Source of the DNA: Bacteroides sp.
GTDB taxonomy: Bacteria > Bacteroidota > Bacteroidia > Bacteroidales > Muribaculaceae
Length of the DNA stretch: 64,000 nucleotides
Assembly (NCBI GenBank): GCA_014802325.1
Contig: JAAVCK010000017.1
Coordinates: forward strand, 50,128 to 114,127
Direction: 5' to 3'
Of this stretch, positions 528 to 12,001 are shown piece by piece. Within the stretch, counting starts at the first letter, position 1, and every line of letters starts with the position of its first letter. The notes below the pieces were generated by a model, which ran no database searches, was not told the DNA's origin, and worked only from the letters and a program-made list of their open reading frames with translations. Made by a program: the position numbers and the translations under genes.

Positions 528-571
528 GCTGAATTTAGAAGAGTGAAAGGCTGAATTTAGAAGAGTGAAAG
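528..571. repeat. 22-bp perfect tandem duplication (GCTGAATTTAGAAGAGTGAAAG x2) overlapping the stop codon of the coiled-coil gene
   Basis: Read directly: 528-549 equals 550-571. Confidence 0.95.
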
Positions 572-2014
572 CTGTGCGTCGTTGTCAGGCACTACGGTGC
601 GCGGAGGTTCGTGGTAACCGAAATCGGGGTCAAACTTGCGTGAGCCTTCGGGCACATCGAGCCAGTCAGTGCTGTCGAGATTGCCGTCGATGGCGTCACG
701 CGTCTTGCGCGGACGTCCGCGGCGCTTGCGCTGAGGCGGGGCAGCTGAGGCGGGAGCGGGATCGTCAATGAGCCTCGGGGCAGCCTCGGCTTCCTGCAGG
801 CGCTCCTTGGTGCGGTCGAGTTCGGCACGCAGTTGCTTTATCTCCGAGCGGAGCTTCATCTCGGCGTTGGCCTGATTGTAAAGATTGGTCTCTATAGTGT
901 GGGAGAGCGATGCGTTTTCATCGCGCAGACGCAGGATTTCTTCCTCAGCGGCTTGAACGTCAGGAGCCGGAGCGGGCATATTTTCAATCTGTTCGGAGAG
1001 CTGCTTCACCTTAGCGGTAAGTTCGGTGATTTTAGCGTCTTTGCGTTTTTTGATTTCCTCAAAGAGTTCGAGTTTTTCCTGGATTTCGGCAGCTATGGCC
1101 AGATCGGATTCGGCTTTGGCAAGCTGCTCCCGGGCGCGCGATGCTTCAGCCTGAAGATTGTTGATCATACTGTCGCTCATAGTGGCTTTCAGTTCAAGCT
1201 GCTCGTTGAGAGTGCGGGCTTTGTTGACCTCGGCATCGAGCTGCTTGATGCGTGAGGTGAGCGACTCGATGTGAGAGTTTAGTTCTTCGATTTTCGCGTC
1301 CTTTTCGGCCGATTCGGTCGGGTCGACAGCTTGGAGCTGACTATGCTTGGTGCTGACTTGTCCCTTCTCGGCTATCAGTTTGCTCAGATGGGAGTCAAGT
1401 TCAGTGATCCGGTCGGTAAAAGCCTGTTTCTGCTGCTCGGCGCTTGTGCGCAGCGATAGCATTTCGTTGCGGAGAGCATCAGCCTCTTCCCGGGCTTGAT
1501 GGAGGGTGTCGATGAGTTGCCGGTGTTCAGTCATGTCAGCCGGAGTGGATACCCTGACCGCTACAGTGGAAGCAATGCGCGCGCGGAGCGAATCGCTGAT
1601 ATGGTCGTAGATATATTTACGCTGCGCTTCAGAGCTGAGCGACTTGGCTACAAACTCGGGCATCGTGGAGTTAAACAGCTCAATAATCGCGTCGAATATA
1701 TCACCCGGCAGATCGTCAGACGAAGTTTCTACTGTCTCTGAAACTATTTCGGCCTTTGTCTCGGCTTCAGCCTTTGTCTCGGCTTCAGCCTTTGTCTCGG
1801 CTTCAACCTTTACCTCGGGTTCGCTCTCAGCCACGGGTCCGGCCACGGGTTCGGTCTCAGCCTTGGGCGACGGAAGGCCGCGCATCACAGGCTTGATCTC
1901 CTCCTCGGGGCGTTCTACGGCATAGGTGGGAACCGATGAGTCGTATTCGTCGAAATCTTCTTCATCGGTAGGCCCGAATCCGAGCAGCTGCTTTATTTCG
2001 TTCCAGATTGACAT
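557..2014 (-). CDS. Hypothetical long coiled-coil protein with N-terminal amphipathic helix, AT-hook-like RGRPRK and C-terminal QLSLF
   Basis: 485-aa ORF in the codirectional run; heptad-rich E/K/Q/L segment over about 250 aa; KRRGRPRK near the C-terminus; ends in QLSLF. Confidence 0.85.
   Translation of the reverse strand: MSIWNEIKQLLGFGPTDEEDFDEYDSSVPTYAVERPEEEIKPVMRGLPSPKAETEPVAGPVAESEPEVKVEAETKAEAETKAEAETKAEIVSETVETSSDDLPGDIFDAIIELFNSTMPEFVAKSLSSEAQRKYIYDHISDSLRARIASTVAVRVSTPADMTEHRQLIDTLHQAREEADALRNEMLSLRTSAEQQKQAFTDRITELDSHLSKLIAEKGQVSTKHSQLQAVDPTESAEKDAKIEELNSHIESLTSRIKQLDAEVNKARTLNEQLELKATMSDSMINNLQAEASRAREQLAKAESDLAIAAEIQEKLELFEEIKKRKDAKITELTAKVKQLSEQIENMPAPAPDVQAAEEEILRLRDENASLSHTIETNLYNQANAEMKLRSEIKQLRAELDRTKERLQEAEAAPRLIDDPAPASAAPPQRKRRGRPRKTRDAIDGNLDSTDWLDVPEGSRKFDPDFGYHEPPRTVVPDNDAQLSLF
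1752..1805 (-). repeat. In-frame 18-bp tandem repeat x3 encoding (EAETKA)3
   Basis: GCCTTTGTCTCGGCTTCA repeated three times on the + strand. Confidence 0.95.
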
Positions 2015-2042
2015 TTGCTTCGTGTAGGTTTTGGCTTTAATG

Positions 2043-5015
2043 TTATAAAATATCAGGTTTCACCACCACACCCATTCCCTTTGTGCCGTCGATGCCGATG
2101 GCGAAAGGCTGCGGGATGGTGACTACTCTTACATGTTCGGTCTCGGCCACGGCGGGAAGACTGTCGAGGAAGTCCACGTCATATATTCCCTTGCCGGCGG
2201 CGGTGTCGACCGTAAAGTAGCCCACCCCCATAGATGTGAGGTTCTGGAAGAAGTGTGTACCCTGGCTCGGCTCGATTCGGTAGTTGGGCAGCGACGACTC
2301 CACGATCAGACGGGCACATGAAATAGCCGGCCATTTCACGGGAATACCCAGCGCGGTGTCAGACGAGCCCCACCTTCCGGGCCCAATCAGGATATAGTTT
2401 TCTCCCTGAGCTGTAAAGTTACGATTTATTTTTTCAATTTCGCGTGCTATGAGCGAATTATTTGCCGAAGAAAAGCATTCGGGACGCACATAAACGACAG
2501 AACGGACATTTTCAAACGTTCCGTGGCCTAAAGCGGTGGTGGATTTCAGCAGCAGTCGGTCGTCGGGCGTTTCCATCAGATGCGGGTCGACGGAGTCTTT
2601 CCGCTCCACGATGGGCCGTATCTGCAACCAGTAGAGTCGGCCTTTTCCGCGCTCGTTTTCGTCGATCATGCCGGCAAATTCTATTTCCACCGGTCGCGAC
2701 ATGGCTTTCTGCCCTGTGGTGAGCATGAAGTCGAGAGCATCGGCCAGCGGTAGCACTTTATGGCGGAGGATGTTATTGAAGGTCACCACGCGTCGGCCTT
2801 CGCCGCTCTCGTAGTCACGCAACACATTGTCGCGGAAATCGTAGGTCGACACCATGTAGCGCAGCGCGCCCTTCATGGCCACATCCTGCACTTTGAGGCG
2901 GGCGAGATTGAAGCTGTCGTCGATCTTGAAATCTTCGGGCACATTTACGGTGTCGAGTGCATAGAGGCGAGTCTGAGTGTCGCGAAGGGCAAGCTGTATT
3001 TCCGAAGTCTGAAGCACATTGTCGGGATGGCGGGGTGAGAACCTAAGTCCTACTCCTCCGTCGACAATGTATTTACCAAGCCCCACGGCTATCTCCACCA
3101 CTCCGTCTTCGGGTCGCTCATCGTTGATGGGATAGTAGTTGAGCGAACGGCCTACACCCGAAAACGACGGGAAGTAATAACCGTCGACATCCTTACCCAC
3201 TACCTCCTGAATTATGACGGCCATCTTCTCCTGATCAATGACATTGGAAGTGGCGGTCATATATGCTTTCGAGTCAGCATAGTATACCGAGGCATAGACG
3301 CTCTTGATAGCATCGGTGACCACTCCGAGCATCTGAGCCGGGTCGGCCAGCTTGGGCACCATGTAGGTGGAGTATATGCCGGCAAACGGCTGATAATGCG
3401 AGTCTTCGAGGAGCGACGACGATCGTATGGCCAGCGGACGGTCCACCACCTCAAAGAGGGCAAGCAGATCTTCCTTGATGGTGACAGGGAGTTTGGCTTT
3501 CAGAAAGTGTTCGAGTATTACGGAGTCGTCGGCATCAGAGAGCGCTATCGGGTAGAGATTGTTGGCCGACATAAATTCGTCGAAAATGTCGGTGCACAGT
3601 ACTACCGTGCGCGGAATGGTGATGGTGAGTCCGTCGAAATCATCGCATACGGGATTCTTCTTGATTATGGAGTCGATAAACGCCAGACCGCGCCCCTTGC
3701 CTCCGAGTGAGCCATCACCTATACGGGCGAAGTTGGAGTAATGATCGAAACGGTCTTTGCGGAACACAGCTACTACACCGCGGTTTTTCATCTTGCGGTA
3801 TTTCACTATGAGGTCAAAGAAAAACTTGCGTGCCTCGGGAGCATCTTCAAGTGACTTGAAGCGGTGGCGCTTGATGAGTTCGGCTATCGGAAACATGGCG
3901 CGGCTGTAGAGCCACCGCGATATGTCGTTGAACGACGCATGCCAGTAGAGCGATTCGGCCGGTATGTCGAATATATGATCCTGAAGATCTTTAAGCGATT
4001 TCAGGCGTATGATTTCCTCTCCGGTCTCGGGATTACGAATCACAAAGTCGCCGAAGCCGAAGTTGTCGGTGATGGCGCTTCCGAGGTCTACGGGAAATTT
4101 CTTGGAATTTTTGTCGATAAACGTGCATCCGAGTTCGGCCACGTCATCGGCATTGGATTTCTCCGACGACTCGATGATGATGGGCAGAAACGGGTCGCGT
4201 CCGCGCAGTTCACGGGCAAGTTTTACACCCGCCTTCGGGTCTTTGCGGCCATCGTGGTTAAACGATACGTCGGTGATCACACCCAGTATATGCTCATGAT
4301 AGCGGTCATAGAGTCGCATGGCTTCCTCATAGTCGCGAGCCAGCATCACTTTAGGGCGTCCGCGCATGCGCAGCATCTGCTCGTGCTCGTTGAGCGCTTC
4401 GGTCGAAAATTCGCGCGACTGCTCAAGCAGAAACTTATATACCTGAGGGAGGACTGAGGAGTAGAATCTCACCGAATCTTCTACCAGAAGTATCATCTGC
4501 ACGCCTACATCGTTGATGTCGTTGTCGGCGTTCATCTTGTCTTCGAGCAGCTTTATTATTGCCAGAAGCAGACCTACGTTGCCCAGCCAGCTGAAAACAT
4601 AGTCGATACCGGTGAAATCTTCGGCCGAAAGGCGACGCGACACTTCCTTGGAGAACGGAGTGAGCACCACTATAGGCAGGTCGGGATAAAGTGCCTTGAT
4701 GGTCCGGGCGCCGGTAAAAGTCTCGCTTATGTCGATGCCCGGCATTGTTATCACGAGGTCAAACTTGGTGGCGGCGAGTTTTTCGAGAGCTTCGGCAGTA
4801 TCAGTGACGCGAGTGACTCGCGGCGGCGACGAGAGATTGAGCGACACGTATTCAAAATACAGCTGCTCCTCCACGCGCCCGTCTTCCTCCATCATGAAGG
4901 CGTCGTATGGCGAGGCTATGAGCAGCACATTGAATATGCGCCGCTTCATGAGATTCTGAAATGCCGTGTCCTTAAGATAAAGACGGCTAAGCTCGTCTAC
5001 GCCGTGAGATTTCAT
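2043..5015 (-). CDS. PEP/pyruvate-binding (PPDK_N ATP-grasp) domain protein with N-terminal receiver domains, usually annotated PEP synthase-like
   Basis: 990 aa; GSLGGKGRGL, LAIRSSSLLEDSHYQPFAGIYST, MAVIIQEVVG, EIAVGLG and PVEIEFA...LQIRP are ATP-grasp motifs of the PEP synthase/PPDK N-domain; receiver-like LLVED...GVITD...IIESS...FIDK. Confidence 0.85.
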   Translation of the reverse strand: MKSHGVDELSRLYLKDTAFQNLMKRRIFNVLLIASPYDAFMMEEDGRVEEQLYFEYVSLNLSSPPRVTRVTDTAEALEKLAATKFDLVITMPGIDISETFTGARTIKALYPDLPIVVLTPFSKEVSRRLSAEDFTGIDYVFSWLGNVGLLLAIIKLLEDKMNADNDINDVGVQMILLVEDSVRFYSSVLPQVYKFLLEQSREFSTEALNEHEQMLRMRGRPKVMLARDYEEAMRLYDRYHEHILGVITDVSFNHDGRKDPKAGVKLARELRGRDPFLPIIIESSEKSNADDVAELGCTFIDKNSKKFPVDLGSAITDNFGFGDFVIRNPETGEEIIRLKSLKDLQDHIFDIPAESLYWHASFNDISRWLYSRAMFPIAELIKRHRFKSLEDAPEARKFFFDLIVKYRKMKNRGVVAVFRKDRFDHYSNFARIGDGSLGGKGRGLAFIDSIIKKNPVCDDFDGLTITIPRTVVLCTDIFDEFMSANNLYPIALSDADDSVILEHFLKAKLPVTIKEDLLALFEVVDRPLAIRSSSLLEDSHYQPFAGIYSTYMVPKLADPAQMLGVVTDAIKSVYASVYYADSKAYMTATSNVIDQEKMAVIIQEVVGKDVDGYYFPSFSGVGRSLNYYPINDERPEDGVVEIAVGLGKYIVDGGVGLRFSPRHPDNVLQTSEIQLALRDTQTRLYALDTVNVPEDFKIDDSFNLARLKVQDVAMKGALRYMVSTYDFRDNVLRDYESGEGRRVVTFNNILRHKVLPLADALDFMLTTGQKAMSRPVEIEFAGMIDENERGKGRLYWLQIRPIVERKDSVDPHLMETPDDRLLLKSTTALGHGTFENVRSVVYVRPECFSSANNSLIAREIEKINRNFTAQGENYILIGPGRWGSSDTALGIPVKWPAISCARLIVESSLPNYRIEPSQGTHFFQNLTSMGVGYFTVDTAAGKGIYDVDFLDSLPAVAETEHVRVVTIPQPFAIGIDGTKGMGVVVKPDIL

Positions 5016-5033
5016 GCGTTGCTATATCGTGGA

Positions 5034-6632
5034 TTATTTGAATATCTGGGAGTACTTGGTGAGGAGGGCTGAGAAGCGGGGATCGTTACGAAGGGGAGCC
5101 ACGTTGAGGTTTGCCTCGGAGTCGCGGGTCCAAGCGTGGAAATTGGCATAACCTTTCTCAAGCGACTTTTCCATGCAGGCAAATGCCTTGTCAAGATTGC
5201 CGTCCCAGGCGAAGAAGCAAGCGCCGTAGTAGTTGGTCAGTCCGTCGTAGTCCTCGGTAGTGGTGAGCACCTTGTTCATCCAGCGGCGGCCGTCGTCAGC
5301 GCGGTCAAGACCGAGCAAAGCGAATCCGCGGAGCGAGCGAACATTGTCGAAGTCATAGTCCATATCGAGAACACGTTCGTAGCTTGCACGTCCGTTTTTG
5401 GTGTTGTTGCGATACTTTTCGAGCACCCATCCGCGGAGTATATACAGCTCCGGGTCTTCGGGATTGTTCATGGCCGCTTCGCTGAGCGCTACCGATGCGT
5501 CGATATAGTTTTCAAGCGCTATGAGGGCGCGTGCGCGAGCTATGAGGGCTGCGTTGAGTTCAGGATCGGCTTCCACGGCCTTGTCGGCGCATGCCAGAGC
5601 GTTGTCGGGTTCGTTGAGCGCAAGGAGGATTTTAGATTTCAATACATTATAGTCGGCATTGTCGGGGGCTGCGCCTACGGCATAGTCGGCATTGAGCATG
5701 GCTTTCTCATATTCACCCAGTGCGTAGTAGCACTCTGCAAGGGCGGCATTAATGCCGGGATAGGAGTCGAGATGACCTTCGATGATCTTGTTGTAGTCGT
5801 CGATAGCGGCGGTATAGTTGCAGTGACCCTGGGCTATCATGGCGCGGATGTAGTAGAACATGCCGTTTTGGGGAGCCTGACGGATGGCGTTGGAAAGTCC
5901 GGCTATCACCACGGGATAGTCGGCGCGCGAGAGCATGACAAGGTAGGCGAGAGCGCGACCGGTGTTCTGCTCGTCGGTGGAGATGGCCATGATATAATCG
6001 TCGACAGCGCCCTGAGGATTACCCATCATGGTATGGACGTCGGCGCGGCGCATGTATACCTCGCTGTTGTTGGGCGAGAGGGTGAGAGCCTGATCGATAA
6101 GCTCGTTGGCAGTACCGAGATTGTTTTCCTTTACGGCTATTCGGGCCAGACCGAACACAGCTTCGAGGCTGCGCGAGTTCATCTGTTGAAGAATCTTGAA
6201 GTCGGTCTTGGCTTCGGCGTATCGTTCGAGATTATACAGGGCGGTGGCGCGCTGATAGAGCGTGGGATAGTCGCCGGGAATGAGAGTAAGCACCTCGTTG
6301 AAATCGGCGAGAGCCTTTTCGTAGCGCTGGCTCATCATCTGGATATTGCCGCGCAGCGAGTATGCCTGAGCGCGCACGTCGGGCTCTGAATCGGGTATGT
6401 ATTTTAAAGCCAGATCAATGTCGGCGAGCGCCTTCACATAGTCGTCGCGGCGGTAATATTCGTTGGCGCGGCGGAAGAGGGCTTCCCAGTCGTGGGGATC
6501 CTCGTCGAGCATGCTCGTATATGCTTTCATGAGAGCCTCGGAGAAGGGGTCGATTTCAGTCTGAGCGTTTGAGCCTAATGCGGTGGCGCATAGGAGCAGA
6601 CCGGGTATTATGATATGACGGATGAGTTTCAT
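5034..6632 (-). CDS. Tetratricopeptide repeat protein with signal peptide
   Basis: Repeated TPR motifs (A...RA..Y....Y..A..D...AL). Start moved from the track start at 6743 (inside kdsA) to ATG 6632, giving MKLIRHIIIPGLLLCATALGSNA. Confidence 0.85.
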   Translation of the reverse strand: MKLIRHIIIPGLLLCATALGSNAQTEIDPFSEALMKAYTSMLDEDPHDWEALFRRANEYYRRDDYVKALADIDLALKYIPDSEPDVRAQAYSLRGNIQMMSQRYEKALADFNEVLTLIPGDYPTLYQRATALYNLERYAEAKTDFKILQQMNSRSLEAVFGLARIAVKENNLGTANELIDQALTLSPNNSEVYMRRADVHTMMGNPQGAVDDYIMAISTDEQNTGRALAYLVMLSRADYPVVIAGLSNAIRQAPQNGMFYYIRAMIAQGHCNYTAAIDDYNKIIEGHLDSYPGINAALAECYYALGEYEKAMLNADYAVGAAPDNADYNVLKSKILLALNEPDNALACADKAVEADPELNAALIARARALIALENYIDASVALSEAAMNNPEDPELYILRGWVLEKYRNNTKNGRASYERVLDMDYDFDNVRSLRGFALLGLDRADDGRRWMNKVLTTTEDYDGLTNYYGACFFAWDGNLDKAFACMEKSLEKGYANFHAWTRDSEANLNVAPLRNDPRFSALLTKYSQIFK

Positions 6633-6678
6633 TGTAATAAATAGTGATAATGTGGGGATTGGCTGTAGGGATGGATAT

Positions 6679-7491
6679 TTAGAAATTGTTGACGACTTTC
6701 CTAAGCTCCACGAGCTGATGAAGCAGTCGGGGCAGGCGGTCAAGAGGCAGCATGTTGGCGCCGTCGCTCTTGGCTTTGCTCGGTTCGGGATGAGTTTCGA
6801 TAAACAGACCGTCGACGCCCACGGCTATACCGGCACGGGCTATAGTGTCGATGAGGTCGGGACGTCCGCCAGTGACACCCTTGGGCTGATTGGGCTGCTG
6901 GAGCGAGTGGGTGGCGTCGAGTATCACCGGCACGTTGAATTTCTGCATCTCGGGTATACCGCGGTAGTCCACTATAAGATCCTGATAGCCGAACGATACT
7001 CCGCGCTCGGTCACGGCCACATTGTCGTTGCCGGCATCGCGCACCTTGTCGATGGCGAAGGTCATGGCCTCGGGCGAGAGAAACTGTCCTTTCTTGATGT
7101 TGACGGCACGTCCGGTGCGGGCGGCCGCAAGGAGCAGGTCGGTCTGGCGGCAGAGGAATGCGGGTATCTGAAGCACGTCGACATATTCGGCTGCCATAGC
7201 GGCTTCCTCGGGTGAATGTATGTCAGTGACCACGGGCACGCCGAACTCTTTGTGCACCTTGGAGAGAATCTTCAGCGCTTCATGGTCGCCGATACCGGTA
7301 AACGAGTCGAGGCGCGAGCGGTTGGCTTTGCGATATGACCCTTTGAACACGTAAGGAATATTCAGCTCAGATGTGAGCTTGACGATGGTCTCGGCGATAT
7401 TCATGGCCATTTCCTCGCCTTCGATCACGCACGGACCGGCCAGGAGGAAGAACATGGGCTGAGAACTGTAGTTTTCAAACTTGAAATCCAT
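6679..7491 (-). CDS. kdsA: 3-deoxy-8-phosphooctulonate (KDO8P) synthase
   Basis: AGPCVIE, KGSYRKANRS, QIPAFLCRQTDLL, NIKKGQF, TERG, DATHSLQ, FIETHP motifs. Confidence 0.96.
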   Translation of the reverse strand: MDFKFENYSSQPMFFLLAGPCVIEGEEMAMNIAETIVKLTSELNIPYVFKGSYRKANRSRLDSFTGIGDHEALKILSKVHKEFGVPVVTDIHSPEEAAMAAEYVDVLQIPAFLCRQTDLLLAAARTGRAVNIKKGQFLSPEAMTFAIDKVRDAGNDNVAVTERGVSFGYQDLIVDYRGIPEMQKFNVPVILDATHSLQQPNQPKGVTGGRPDLIDTIARAGIAVGVDGLFIETHPEPSKAKSDGANMLPLDRLPRLLHQLVELRKVVNNF

Positions 7492-7500
7492 TGATATATC

Positions 7501-8220
7501 TTATATATTAATGTGGTTGATCTGATCTATAATATGGCAGGCCGATACGGCATAGAGGGCGGCAGTCTCGGTGCGCAGCCTGTTCTCGCCCAAAGTCACA
7601 GCTGTAAATCCTGCGGCGAGTGCCGACTCTATCTCGGCGGGAGTGAAATCGCCCTCCGGACCGATGAGGATAATTGTGTCGGAGGCCGGGCGATATACCG
7701 ACGTGAAGTCGGTGCGCCCCACGGCGTCGTCGCAGTAAGCCACGGCTTTGGTGTAGCCGTCGTAAGCACTGATAATACTGCTTATAGGTGTCATCGGTTC
7801 TATGACCGGCAGGGTGGCTTTGAGCGACTGCTTCATGGCCGAGACGGCGATTTTCTCAAGTCGTTCGGTCTTGATCTCCTTGCGCTCGGAGCGACCGCAG
7901 AGCATGGGGATGATGCGGTTGACACCTACCTCGGTGAGCTTTTCCACCATCCACTCCATGCGGTCAAGATGCTTGGTGGGAGCCACGGCCACTACTATCT
8001 GCTGACTCCACGGCAGAGCCTGCGGGTCACACGACAGTATCTCTACCGCAGCCCGCTTGGAATGAGCTTCGGTGAGGCGGCACTGATACACGTTGCCGCG
8101 ACCGTCGATCACCTGCATCATGTCTCCTTCGTGCATACGGAGCACCCTCACGGCATGAGCCGAATCACTCTCGGGCAGGCGGAGCGTATCGGCTATCTCA
8201 GGGGCATAAAACTGTATCAT
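7501..8220 (-). CDS. rsmE: 16S rRNA m3U1498 methyltransferase
   Basis: HAVRVLR, EKLTEVGV, IGPEGDFT, LGENRLRTETAA motifs. Confidence 0.95.
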   Translation of the reverse strand: MIQFYAPEIADTLRLPESDSAHAVRVLRMHEGDMMQVIDGRGNVYQCRLTEAHSKRAAVEILSCDPQALPWSQQIVVAVAPTKHLDRMEWMVEKLTEVGVNRIIPMLCGRSERKEIKTERLEKIAVSAMKQSLKATLPVIEPMTPISSIISAYDGYTKAVAYCDDAVGRTDFTSVYRPASDTIILIGPEGDFTPAEIESALAAGFTAVTLGENRLRTETAALYAVSACHIIDQINHINI

Positions 8221-8249
8221 GAGTGGGGTAGGGTGGTTGATAAAACGGA

Positions 8250-9620
8250 TTATTTTTCGAGGGGAGCGTCTACAAAACCGTCGGGCGCGGCTTGTTCGGC
8301 CACAGATGCTTTATCGCCGGCAGCGGGGCGCTTCTCCTTGAATATGATCATAAACATTATGGCCACGACCAGAGCGTAGGCGGCGAATATGGCCCAGCTT
8401 GTCTGCCAGCCGTGGAGGATAGCTTCGGGGTTATGCTGTATGGCCGGGTCATAGACGAGATTATTGACTACCACCGAGCCGGCAATGAGTGTACCCAGCG
8501 AAGCACCGATACCGTTGGTCATGAGCATGAACAGACCCTGAGCCGAACTGCGCTGAGCCGGAGGTGTCTGCGAGTCGACATACAGGCCACCCGATACATT
8601 GAAGAAGTCGAAGGCCACGCCGTAGACTATGCACGACATGATGAGGTAGCTCACGCCTGAGGGCGATGTATTGCCTATTGCGAAAAATCCGAAGCGGAGC
8701 ACCCAGGCAAACATGGCTATGAGCATCACGCCCTTGATGCCGTAGCGCTTGAGGCAGAAAGGAATGAGGAGTATGCACAGGGCCTCGGCGCACTGCGATA
8801 TGGAGATGAGAAATGTGGGGTTCTGAGCCCAGAATCCGCCTTCGTAGCCCGGCACGCTGTTGAACTGATATATGTAGCTTGAGCCGTAGCTGTTGGTGAT
8901 CTGAAGCGAAACACCGAGAAACATGCAGAATATGAAGAATATCGCCATCTCACGGCGCTTGAACAGGGCGAATGCCTTCACGCCCAGGCTGTCGGCCAGA
9001 GATTTGCCTGATGATTTCTTTACGGGGCAGTCGGGGAGAGTGAGGCAGTAGGCTGCAAGCACCAGACTGAGTGCTCCGGAGAGGTAAAACTGTGTGTAGC
9101 TGTGCTGAATCTCCACACCGCCGATCGATATGAAGTTGACAGCCAGTTCGGCCACTATGAAGCCCACGGTGCCGAACACTCGTATGGGCGGAAACTCTTT
9201 CACGGTGTCGAGCCGGTGCTGCTCAAGTACGTTGAAAGCCACGGAGTTGGACATGCCTATCGTGGGCATATAGAATGCTACCGATATGGCATAGAGGGTG
9301 AAGATGGAGGTAAACGGAAGTTGCTCGCCCGACACCGATGCCACGTAGCCGGTAGCTATCATGAATACACCGGCCAGCAGCTGGCAGAGGCTGAGTGTCT
9401 TCTGCGCCGGTATCCAGCGGTCGGCGATGATGCCTATGATAGCGGGCATGAATATCGACACGATACCCTGGGCGGTGTAGAACCAAAACACGTAGTTGCC
9501 GAGGCCGTGAGTGGCCAAATACATACCCATAGATATGAGATAGGCGCCCCAGATGGCGAACTCAAGAAAGTTCATCACCGTCAGGCGTGCTTTTATCTGA
9601 AACGGATTTGCAGGTGTCAT
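8250..9620 (-). CDS. MFS nucleoside:H+ symporter (NupG/XapB-like)
   Basis: About 12 hydrophobic segments; FLEFAIWGAY, IADRW, FPPIRVFGTVGFI, SQCAE, GVAFDFFN, SAQGLF..MTNG. Confidence 0.88.
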   Translation of the reverse strand: MTPANPFQIKARLTVMNFLEFAIWGAYLISMGMYLATHGLGNYVFWFYTAQGIVSIFMPAIIGIIADRWIPAQKTLSLCQLLAGVFMIATGYVASVSGEQLPFTSIFTLYAISVAFYMPTIGMSNSVAFNVLEQHRLDTVKEFPPIRVFGTVGFIVAELAVNFISIGGVEIQHSYTQFYLSGALSLVLAAYCLTLPDCPVKKSSGKSLADSLGVKAFALFKRREMAIFFIFCMFLGVSLQITNSYGSSYIYQFNSVPGYEGGFWAQNPTFLISISQCAEALCILLIPFCLKRYGIKGVMLIAMFAWVLRFGFFAIGNTSPSGVSYLIMSCIVYGVAFDFFNVSGGLYVDSQTPPAQRSSAQGLFMLMTNGIGASLGTLIAGSVVVNNLVYDPAIQHNPEAILHGWQTSWAIFAAYALVVAIMFMIIFKEKRPAAGDKASVAEQAAPDGFVDAPLEK

Positions 9621-9664
9621 AGCGTAATAAACAGTTGAAAAGTGGTATTGAAATGAATTTAAGG

Positions 9665-10378
9665 TTAGTCAGCAGTTTGTGGGTCAGCGTCGTTATCGCG
9701 TTGCTCACGCTTGCGGCGGAGTATGGCCATCACGCGGGCGGCTTCTTCATATTCCTCGCGCTCGGTGAGGCGGGCTATGGTGCGCTCAAGTTCCTCGATG
9801 GCATAATTTTCGAGTTTTGGCTCGCGGATATACGACGATACCTCTTCTTCCTCCTCCTGCTCCATGCCGGGAGCGAGGGCGTCGTCATCGTCGCTATCGT
9901 CATATGAGCCGAAATCATCGTCACCATCCTCATCGTCGTCACCGGCTTCGGCATTCTCGCCCTCGACTTCGAGCAGAAAACCGGTCTTGTCGAGGATTTC
10001 CTGAGTGGTGTAGATGGGCGATCCGGTGCGCATGGCTATGGCTATGCCGTCGCTGGTGCGGGCGTCGATCACCACGGTGCGGTCGCCGTCGGTGAAGGTC
10101 AGCTCACACGAAAATATTCCGTCTTCAAACTTGTAAATGAAAGCCTCCTTGAGCTTGACGCCAAACGTGTGGGCAAACGATACGAAGAGGTCGTGGGTCA
10201 TAGGGCGAGGAGGCTTGATGCTCTCCATGGCCATGGCTATTGACTGTGCCTCGGCCGGGCCTATCACCACCGGTATGCGGTAAGGGCCGTTGACCTGCGC
10301 CAGTATGAGAGCGTAGGCGCCCTGCTGAATCTGGCTGTAGGAGAGTCCGAGTACTTTCAATCTTATTCGTTGTTCCAT
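9665..10378 (-). CDS. Bifunctional nuclease (DUF151/BFN) domain protein with acidic linker and C-terminal UVR-like helix pair
   Basis: IGPAEAQSI, RPMTHDL, DARTSDGIAIA motifs; C-terminal ELERTIARLTEREEYEEAARV resembles the UvrB/C motif. Confidence 0.88.
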   Translation of the reverse strand: MEQRIRLKVLGLSYSQIQQGAYALILAQVNGPYRIPVVIGPAEAQSIAMAMESIKPPRPMTHDLFVSFAHTFGVKLKEAFIYKFEDGIFSCELTFTDGDRTVVIDARTSDGIAIAMRTGSPIYTTQEILDKTGFLLEVEGENAEAGDDDEDGDDDFGSYDDSDDDDALAPGMEQEEEEEVSSYIREPKLENYAIEELERTIARLTEREEYEEAARVMAILRRKREQRDNDADPQTAD

Positions 10379-10403
10379 ATATATTATATATGTGGTGAGA
10401 GAC

Positions 10404-11492
10404 TTAAATATTGATGTTGCCTCCCGTGATCACACCGCTGCCCAGGCACACGGTCTTTTCGGGATTGTATATCACGCCGAATTGGCCCGGGGCTATGCCC
10501 TGAACCTTTACGGCAGAGGAGATTACATATTCATGTTCTGTGCCGTGCACTCGCGATAGGGTGGCGGGCATGAACTCGGGTGTGTGGCGGTTTTTAAACG
10601 TGATGGCTACGTTGTCACATTCTTCGGGCCACGGATTGCGGGTGATCCAGTGCATTTCGGCCAAATGGAGTGTGTGGCCATACTGCTTTTCGGTGTCATA
10701 GCCCCGCGACACGTATATCACATTGTCGTGAACGTTTTTTCTGACCACATACCATGGGCCTCCCGACAGGCCGAGGCCTTTGCGCTGACCTATGGTGTGA
10801 AACCAAAATCCGCGGTGCTCGCCCAGCTTGCGGCCTGTTTCGAGTTCCACTATCGCACCGGGGCGCTCGCCGAGATAGCGGCGTATGAAGTCGTTGTAAT
10901 TTATCTTGCCGAGGAAGCATATGCCCTGACTGTCGCGGCGGAAAGCGTTGGGCATATTGGTCTCGATGGCTATTTCCCTTACGCGAGCCTTGGGCAGATC
11001 GCCTATGGGAAACATCAGATGCGAAAGCTGGTCGTAGGAAATCTGAGCGAGAAAGTCGGTCTGATCCTTTACCGGATCTACGGCTGTGCCAAGATACACC
11101 AGTCCGTCACTACCCTCCACTGTCGTGGCATAGTGGCCGGTGGCGGTGCGGTCAAACTCATGTCCCCAGCGCTGCTCGAAAAATCCGAACTTTATCATCT
11201 TGTTGCACATCAGGTCAGGGTTGGGCGTAAGACCTTCCTTCACGGTGCGGAGCGCATAGTCCATCACATTGTCCCAATATTCCTGATGGAGAGATACCAC
11301 GTCAAAGGGCAGTCCGTAGCGGCGGGCTATGAAGGTGCACATCTCTATGTCTTCATCGGCCGCGCAGTCACCCTCGCCGTTGTCAAGACCTATGCGTATA
11401 TAAAAGAGATGCAGGTCATGTCCTTGCTCCAGAAGCCGGTGCACGGCCACGGCGCTGTCTACGCCGCCTGATATGAGTACAGCTATCTTCAT
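10404..11492 (-). CDS. mnmA: tRNA 2-thiouridine(34) synthase
   Basis: SGGVDS PP-loop, [43 protein letters not shown]. Confidence 0.96.
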
Positions 11493-12001
11493 TATACTTC
11501 TTCGAGAACTTCTTCTTCCGACTTGCCGTTGCGGTCGATGATATAAAGTGATATGAAATAGTCAAGCGATATCTTGCCCGGGCCTACTATAAGGAGAAAC
11601 AGGTATATGCCGATAAACATGATGGGCAGATAGCCGGGATCGGTGCTGTCAAGACCGTGGACGGGCAGCTGCGGCACCATATCGTGGAGTATGTAATATT
11701 CGGCCGCTATCATTGCCACCATGGGCGGAATCACACTCATGCGTGTCAGGAATCCCACCATGATGAGCAGCGAGCATCCGAGCTCTATTATTATCATGAT
11801 GATCAGCGAGCACATGGGCGACATGTTGAGCACCGTGGGAAAGTCGGTGCACAGCATATTGAAATTCACCAGATGCCTGATGCCGAACTGCATCATCATC
11901 ACGCCCACAAACAGTCGCAGAAACAGTCGGCCCATATTCGGAAAACTGCGTCCGATGGAGTTGAGATAGAGATTTACTATCGAGTTGAGAAAACCTTTCA
12001 T
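11492..12001 (-). CDS. DoxX family membrane protein
   Basis: LFLRLFVG...[16 protein letters not shown]...GPGKISLDY pattern. Confidence 0.85.

Follow-up and report, generated by a model that had tools for sequence, protein, structure and literature searches.

A putative receiver-controlled phosphotransfer protein misannotated as phosphoenolpyruvate synthase, and the linkage of its relatives to glutamate dehydrogenase genes

Introduction

The locus described here raises the question of what a protein whose homologues are publicly named phosphoenolpyruvate (PEP) synthase does when it carries response-regulator receivers in front of its ATP-grasp domain and a tail of another kind behind it. The gene lies in a 64,000-nucleotide (nt) stretch from a Bacteroides sp. 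of the Muribaculaceae (GenBank assembly GCA_014802325.1, contig JAAVCK010000017.1, positions 50,128 to 114,127), which we call the window, and its product is referred to as P0001. The names carried by close homologues agree with a Muribaculaceae origin and suggest a position near Duncaniella. We propose, with a probability of roughly 55%, that P0001 is a response-regulator-controlled phosphotransfer enzyme of the mechanistic type represented by PpsA, PPDK and rifampin phosphotransferase (RPH), in which a phosphohistidine carrier would be coupled to a regulatory receiver. The proposed chemistry derives from sequence comparison and structural modelling. The family to which P0001 belongs is uncharacterised and misannotated as PEP synthase, and the gene neighbourhoods of its relatives point towards glutamate dehydrogenase (GDH).

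Results and Discussion

Domain architecture of P0001

A single uninterrupted open reading frame of 990 codons fills positions 2043-5015 on the minus strand of the window. The following features, all on the minus strand, were assigned within it:

2043-5015, minus strand: whole gene of P0001, 990 amino acids (aa), in the order pseudo-receiver, receiver, linker, ATP-grasp domain and His tail (AlphaFold2 model of the whole protein, predicted local distance difference test (pLDDT) 86.4, predicted template modelling score (pTM) 0.78)
4521-4940, minus strand: pseudo-receiver, residues ~26-165, with Met91 at the phospho-acceptor site (weak Response_reg match at 66-124, (beta-alpha)5 fold in the model, Foldseek match to PleD)
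4062-4508, minus strand: intact receiver, residues ~170-318, with E179/D180, D249, S283 and K302 (Response_reg match and conservation)
4269-4271, minus strand: codon of the residue predicted to accept phosphate in the receiver, Asp249 (position and conservation)
3720-4058, minus strand: mostly helical, DUF5752-like linker, residues ~320-432 (helices in the model, weak DUF5752 matches in homologues)
2571-3710, minus strand: PPDK_N-type ATP-grasp domain, residues 436-815, catalytic residues intact (Pfam E 1.9e-39, invariant residues, Foldseek)
2046-2570, minus strand: C-terminal tail of 175 aa, residues 816-990, a predicted divergent swivelling phosphohistidine-type domain that family libraries leave unnamed (predicted fold)
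2358-2384, minus strand: GPGRWGSSD loop, residues 878-886, family-specific and near-invariant, with R881 invariant (alignments)
2253-2255, minus strand: His921 codon; this invariant residue, a candidate phospho-carrier, opens helix 921-928 (conservation and model)

The receiver motifs are FDLVITM (85-91), LLVED (176-180), GVITD (245-249), IIESS (280-284) and FIDK (299-302), and those of the tail are ISCARLIVE (898-906) and SQGTHFFQ (917-924). The initial annotation, made from the letters of the window, had described a pseudo-receiver, a receiver, an ATP-grasp domain and a His-bearing tail within one protein. All motifs that it quoted are present in the order given, the domain order is borne out with a helical linker in addition, and the His codon that it placed at 2253-2255 is that of His921.

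The ATP-grasp domain and the PEP synthase annotation

In P0001, PPDK_N (PF01326) matches residues 436-815 and scores 136 bits, where the cut-off is 27. Conservation was assessed in 43 full-length proteins, mostly from different 50%-identity clusters with a few closer relatives, and in a second set of 73 Bacteroidales orthologues. In the first set, the ATP-grasp domain shows no variation at K440, R531, E537, D538, E777, E779 or Q798, and 42 of the 43 proteins keep R800. When the whole model was compared with the PDB by Foldseek, the best matches were RPH (5hv1, 6.9e-13), HpeI (9goj, the second best, 5.5e-11) and PPDK, all to the C-terminal half.

The public name implies that P0001 is an ordinary PEP synthase, that is, a pyruvate, water dikinase. 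Homologues do carry this name, and the NCBIfam PEP synthase models match P0001 weakly. These matches, like those of the RPH and PigC/RedH models, cover the ATP-grasp part only and fall far under the cut-offs (for example 56 bits against 883 for a PEP synthase model and 20 bits against 999 for RPH). The PEP-utilizers_C TIM barrel (PF02896) gave no match in the Pfam scan of P0001, in agreement with the initial annotation, which had already noted the absence of a pyruvate-binding barrel, and the protein stops only 69 residues past His921. A canonical PPDK of 914 aa is encoded elsewhere in the same genome, so that a PEP synthase role for P0001 is not needed. The missing barrel together with this separate PPDK therefore means that P0001 is not an ordinary PEP synthase. 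The architecture contradicts such a role, which we consider hardly credible, and the annotation "phosphoenolpyruvate synthase" of its homologues is functionally wrong.

The C-terminal tail

Searched alone against 1.84 billion cluster representatives, the 175-aa tail matched 1658 clusters at 50% identity, and it sits after a PPDK_N domain in all nine architectures scanned. Its residues R881, E906, S917, G919, H921, F922 and N925 are invariant in the 43 full-length proteins, and the GPGRWG..D loop is nearly so. H921, whose conservation the initial annotation had proposed as a check, is also invariant in 63 tails and in 73/73 Bacteroidales orthologues, and the pattern S[QL]G[TS]HFF[QH]N occurs in at least 600 stretches of species-representative genomes. 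Judged from these alignments, the conservation is far beyond chance.

AlphaFold models the tail with a pLDDT of 91.5 as a swivelling beta/beta/alpha fold. A strand (901-907) is followed by a loop, by His921 at the start of helix 921-928 and by a further strand (932-937), which is the same order as in the canonical phosphohistidine domain. The best structural match of the tail model is the PEP-utilizers-like C-terminal domain of Geobacillus pyruvate kinase (2e28, score 7.3), followed by the His domain of RPH (5hv1, residues 759-867, 7.1), the central domain of maize PPDK (1vbg, residues 389-511, 6.7), the isolated PPDK phosphoryl carrier domain (2fm4, 6.5) and the N-terminal domains of three Enzyme I proteins (6.0-6.2). 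Together these make up seven of the top eight matches. The rest of the top 50 consists mostly of RraA-like proteins, putative cyclases, PA domains, GroEL apical domains, aconitase domain 4/LeuD, the C-domain of LD-carboxypeptidase and diol-dehydratase reactivase, which the SCOP classification places in the same swivelling beta/beta/alpha fold. The matches thus concentrate on the single domain that is expected at this place in a dikinase.

The predicted fold and the invariant His921 at a helix N-terminus make it very probable that a divergent domain of the swivelling phosphohistidine type lies behind the ATP-grasp domain, which supports the cryptic swivel His that the initial annotation had suspected. 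In the AlphaFold Database (AFDB), a cluster search with the tail found the fold only in proteins of the same family, down to 17% identity. Two AFDB representatives named 'histidine kinase' (A0A7X8QVR3, 721 aa; A0A2H0DQ44, 949 aa) share the tail fold at 42-44% identity, so that fusions to modules of classical sensor kinases may exist within the family.

The receivers and the linker

The N-terminal half of the AlphaFold2 model matches PleD-type tandem receivers in Foldseek, and Pfam finds two weak Response_reg stretches in P0001. The second receiver has a single-domain score of 20 bits with PF00072, under the gathering cut-off of 30.2. Its canonical residues are conserved: across the 43 proteins, E179 is present in 43, D180 in 41, D249 in 40, S283 in 39 (plus two with Thr) and K302 in 41, and among the Bacteroidales orthologues D249, S283 and K302 are each found in 73/73 and D180 in 72/73. 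The receiver Asp that the initial annotation had taken for a potential phosphate acceptor is therefore conserved.

The acceptor column of the first receiver holds M, L, T, V, I or F in the 43 proteins, usually Met, and is M71/I2 in the 73 orthologues. Asp never occurs there, so that the Met first noticed at this site, Met91, reflects what in these alignments is a family-wide pseudo-receiver. For the linker (320-432), Pfam gave no match in P0001 itself; DUF5752 is weakly matched by this region in 15 of the 43 homologues and in a locus described below (L121). HisKA/DHp and HATPase_c domains gave no Pfam match in P0001.

Linkage to glutamate dehydrogenase

To place the family in its genomic context, 79 Bacteroidales loci were fetched by the tail motif, with GDH neighbours recognised as Pfam ELFV_dehydrog. 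GDH is the most widespread neighbour family in these loci and lies within ~10 kb in 23 of them. In loci of Phocaeicola, Bacteroides, Prevotella, Parabacteroides and Tannerellaceae it is located immediately upstream and divergent, with gaps of 30-356 nt. Four distant homologues were looked up individually, and each has a GDH gene right beside it in the same direction. They are P0254 (988 aa), P0142 and P0143, which are tandem proteins without receivers, and P0148, a truncated receiver-type gene call. P0148 was considered as a receiver-less form and rejected, as its gene call is 5'-truncated at a contig edge; it is not counted as an independent architecture.

An evenly drawn sample of the phylum covered 61 genomes. 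Fourteen of them carry the tail; GDH is immediately adjacent in ten of these, ~4 kb away in one and not near in three, this genome included. The statement in the initial annotation that homologues often flank gdhA is thus borne out, and the linkage is absent here, as it had also said. The two GDH genes of this genome sit on contigs C2 and C26. The C2 copy (clade A) shares 80-82% identity with its orthologue, the GDH that neighbours the family gene in Phocaeicola, Bacteroides and Parabacteroides, and the C26 copy belongs to a second paralogue clade. In three loci of Parabacteroides and Bacteroides (L085, L108, L063), the receiver-dikinase gene has a GDH of one paralogue clade 0.2-5 kb upstream and a GDH of the other clade 3-5 kb downstream.

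Two loci show the linkage in a more elaborate form. In genome G037 (L121, G037:C34:13000-25500, minus strand, 1389-11838), five co-directional genes form an array GDH-X-GDH-X-GDH, where X denotes the family member, with sizes of 446, 1009, 470, 1021 and 417 aa and gaps of 64, 14, 3 and 265 nt. This arrangement suggests cognate GDH-X pairs. In genome G041 (L122, G041:C15:427000-437000, 733-7066), a GDH gene is followed by a gene for a 588-aa receiver-less protein of ATP-grasp domain and tail; the third gene encodes a 1063-aa protein in which ATP-grasp domain and tail are followed by a C-terminal nucleotidyltransferase (NTP_transf_2). In other organisms, fused proteins of 1523-1654 aa combine the 588-aa and 1063-aa types and keep the His motif in both halves. 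P0142 and P0143 (L119, 8001-12965) belong to this receiver-less class.

Based on these gene neighbourhoods, a functional link between the family and GDH is probable, and direct phosphorylation of GDH, for which the basis is the same, is possible but on balance doubtful. Since paralogues are repeatedly paired with their own GDH genes, GDH or a GDH ligand is suggested as the partner. The nucleotidyltransferase domain of the receiver-less class points in the same direction, because it recalls covalent-modification enzymes such as GlnE, which acts on glutamine synthetase; by this analogy, covalent modification may be involved here as well. A prediction of the complex between the ATP-grasp domain and tail of P0148 and the adjacent GDH scored 0.01, which weighs neither for nor against an interaction.

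More tentatively still, the family could be a signal-gated, ATP-driven covalent modifier, or an obligate ATP-coupling partner, of a cognate GDH, in which the phosphate of His921 would go to GDH or to a GDH-bound intermediate and each paralogue would serve the neighbouring GDH, as in the GDH-X-GDH-X-GDH array. If true, ammonium assimilation would be under a post-translational control not known before. A reversible inactivation of Bacteroides GDH in vivo was reportedly described in the 1980s, although our literature search did not find the report; the same model, if true, might explain it.

Proposed mechanism and competing explanations

Following the dikinases, ATP would be bound by the ATP-grasp domain, and His921 on the mobile tail would take the beta-phosphoryl group with release of AMP and Pi. 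The phosphoryl group would then be passed from His921 to an acceptor outside the P0001 polypeptide. Phosphorylation of Asp249 by a separate histidine kinase would switch the enzyme on or off, with the pseudo-receiver serving as an adaptor, as in PleD. Going by the gene neighbourhoods, the acceptor or working partner may be GDH or something bound to it, and in this genome the candidate partner would be the unlinked clade-A GDH on contig C2.

A different route for the phosphate had been put forward in the initial annotation, namely a self-contained relay independent of histidine kinases, from the ATP-grasp domain to His921 and on to Asp249 of the same polypeptide or of a dimer partner, with an output that is conformational or exerted on a partner protein. 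An invariant His carrier and a conserved, intact receiver Asp do occur in one polypeptide, and no cognate histidine kinase gene is conserved beside the gene in the 79 loci. Orphan receivers are common in Bacteroidales, however, so that the missing neighbour kinase is weak evidence. In the known cases of His-to-Asp transfer, the donors are DHp or HPt four-helix bundles and not swivel domains. The receiver-less forms also argue against a relay within one polypeptide, both the stand-alone 588-aa protein and the tandem proteins of 1523-1654 aa, in which the same module, the same His motif and the GDH linkage are found. We therefore regard this relay as improbable. Because this His is retained in relatives without a receiver, a regulatory input is a more likely role for the receiver than that of acceptor of phosphate from His921, and the acceptor would lie outside the cis receiver, at least in the receiver-less forms. 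For the same reason, a better fit is the alternative also named in the initial annotation, a dikinase of unknown substrate under the control of the receiver.

Several results weigh against P0001 being a receiver-controlled phosphohistidine enzyme. At the sequence level, the isolated tail matches no Pfam family at E<=10, PF00391 included, a profile of 63 tails gave chance matches only against all PDB sequences (E >= 0.06), and hhalign of the tail profile with 27 genuine PEP-utilizers domains from genomes of the same phylum returned a probability of 0.6% (P 0.09). The His-to-His register of that last alignment was set aside as structurally implausible. The tail signature SQG[ST]HFFQN differs from the canonical GG.[TS][SC]HAA, and ~8 more residues than in the canonical domain make up the loop that leads to the His. 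Foldseek gave no PDB match for the tail alone. Beyond the tail, a cognate histidine kinase was not identified in the 79 loci, and no GDH gene lies near the P0001 gene or in the Muribaculaceae loci examined. Searches of the literature on the family, DUF5752, the GDH link and B. thetaiotaomicron locus tags gave no paper on the family and no biochemistry for any member. The by-eye alignment of the tail with GG.TSHAAI in the initial annotation thus finds no support in Pfam, the PDB profile search or hhalign, and is nonetheless consistent with the predicted fold; the swivel fold itself, which had likewise been anticipated, is seen in the confident AlphaFold model and is without a Foldseek counterpart in the PDB.

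The tail might instead be a relic of the swivel fold that carries no phosphate and acts in regulation or ligand binding, comparable to the additional domain at the C-terminus of Geobacillus pyruvate kinase, leaving the ATP-grasp domain alone as a kinase, ligase or nucleotide sensor. No structure matches the tail better than that pyruvate kinase domain (2e28), the tail lacks the canonical GG.TSH signature, and other invariant polar residues (R881, D886, E906, S917, N925, Y933) suggest a binding pocket of the tail's own. Against such a relic, the His is invariant across clusters with as little as 38% identity to the P0001 tail, each half of the tandem proteins retains it, and His921 is topologically equivalent to the catalytic His. 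The PPDK_N domains of all characterised relatives act through a His carrier (PMC4844700, PMC13400623). A relic tail is accordingly unlikely in our view, and we favour the phosphohistidine carrier under receiver control.

Local gene neighbourhood

In the window, the P0001 gene is flanked by two co-directional genes:

5034-6743, minus strand: TPR protein, upstream, ending 18 nt before the start of P0001 (gene calls)
557-2014, minus strand: 485-aa protein matching no Pfam family, beginning 28 nt past the stop of P0001 (gene calls)

Neither of the two gaps (18 and 28 nt) contains a terminator-like hairpin. The TPR gene is probably co-transcribed with the P0001 gene. The listed TTG start of the TPR gene overlaps by 65 nt the end of a DAHP_synth_1 (KdsA-like) gene at 6679-7491 on the minus strand, and for this reason the true TPR start probably lies further downstream. 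In 19 related loci, mostly from Muribaculaceae, a homologue of the 485-aa protein occupies the +1 position in the same direction and is followed by a DPP-IV peptidase. Both are kept as neighbours among close relatives only.

Significance

The family is very large, as its 1658 clusters (50% identity) and its motif in at least 600 stretches show, and nearly every gut Bacteroidales member has it. Should the proposed mechanism prove right, it would be a third route, beside classical histidine kinases and the phosphotransferase system (PTS), by which phosphohistidine chemistry is wired into bacterial signalling, with a carrier domain that is invisible to sequence libraries. It would also provide a testable candidate for post-translational control of GDH, on which dominant gut anaerobes mainly rely to assimilate ammonium. 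Given the GDH adjacency in most relatives, the P0001 family may represent an unstudied ATP-driven control of nitrogen assimilation.

Comparison with known systems

When comparing P0001 with PpsA and PPDK (1vbg, 1dik, 5jvl), there are three differences. P0001 has no TIM barrel, its putative carrier is unrecognisable by sequence, and receivers are added at its N-terminus. RPH-Lm (5hv1; PMC4844700) differs in another way: a rifampin-binding domain is placed between the ATP-grasp and His domains, the sequence of the His domain is canonical, and receivers are absent.

The N-terminal half is reminiscent of PleD-type regulators (1w25, 9g85), in which tandem receivers, one canonical and one a degenerate adaptor, likewise precede an enzymatic output (Foldseek E ~3e-7). 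Whereas the output of PleD-type proteins is GGDEF, that of P0001 is a dikinase-type module, and the order of the receivers is reversed, with the pseudo-receiver first.

In HpeHI and MarK (9goj; PMC12167813, PMC12624787), a PPDK_N-type ATP-grasp domain and a swivel His phosphorylate an acceptor other than pyruvate, as is proposed here. However, their substrates are aromatic ketones, the system is split over two polypeptides, and there are neither receivers nor a GDH linkage.

VadK (Rv1127c) of M. tuberculosis also lacks a TIM barrel. It consists of an ATP-grasp domain and a His domain, autophosphorylates His422 and regulates enzymes of the methylcitrate cycle (PMC13400623). Compared by description and not by sequence, VadK differs in its recognisable PEP-utilizers His domain, in having no receivers and in acting on the methylcitrate cycle rather than on GDH. 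It is a truncated PPDK relative, reduced to ATP-grasp and phosphohistidine domains, that serves as a regulator of metabolic enzymes and does not form PEP (PMC13400623), a role resembling the one proposed for the P0001 family. By analogy, VadK would thus be the nearest experimental precedent for P0001.

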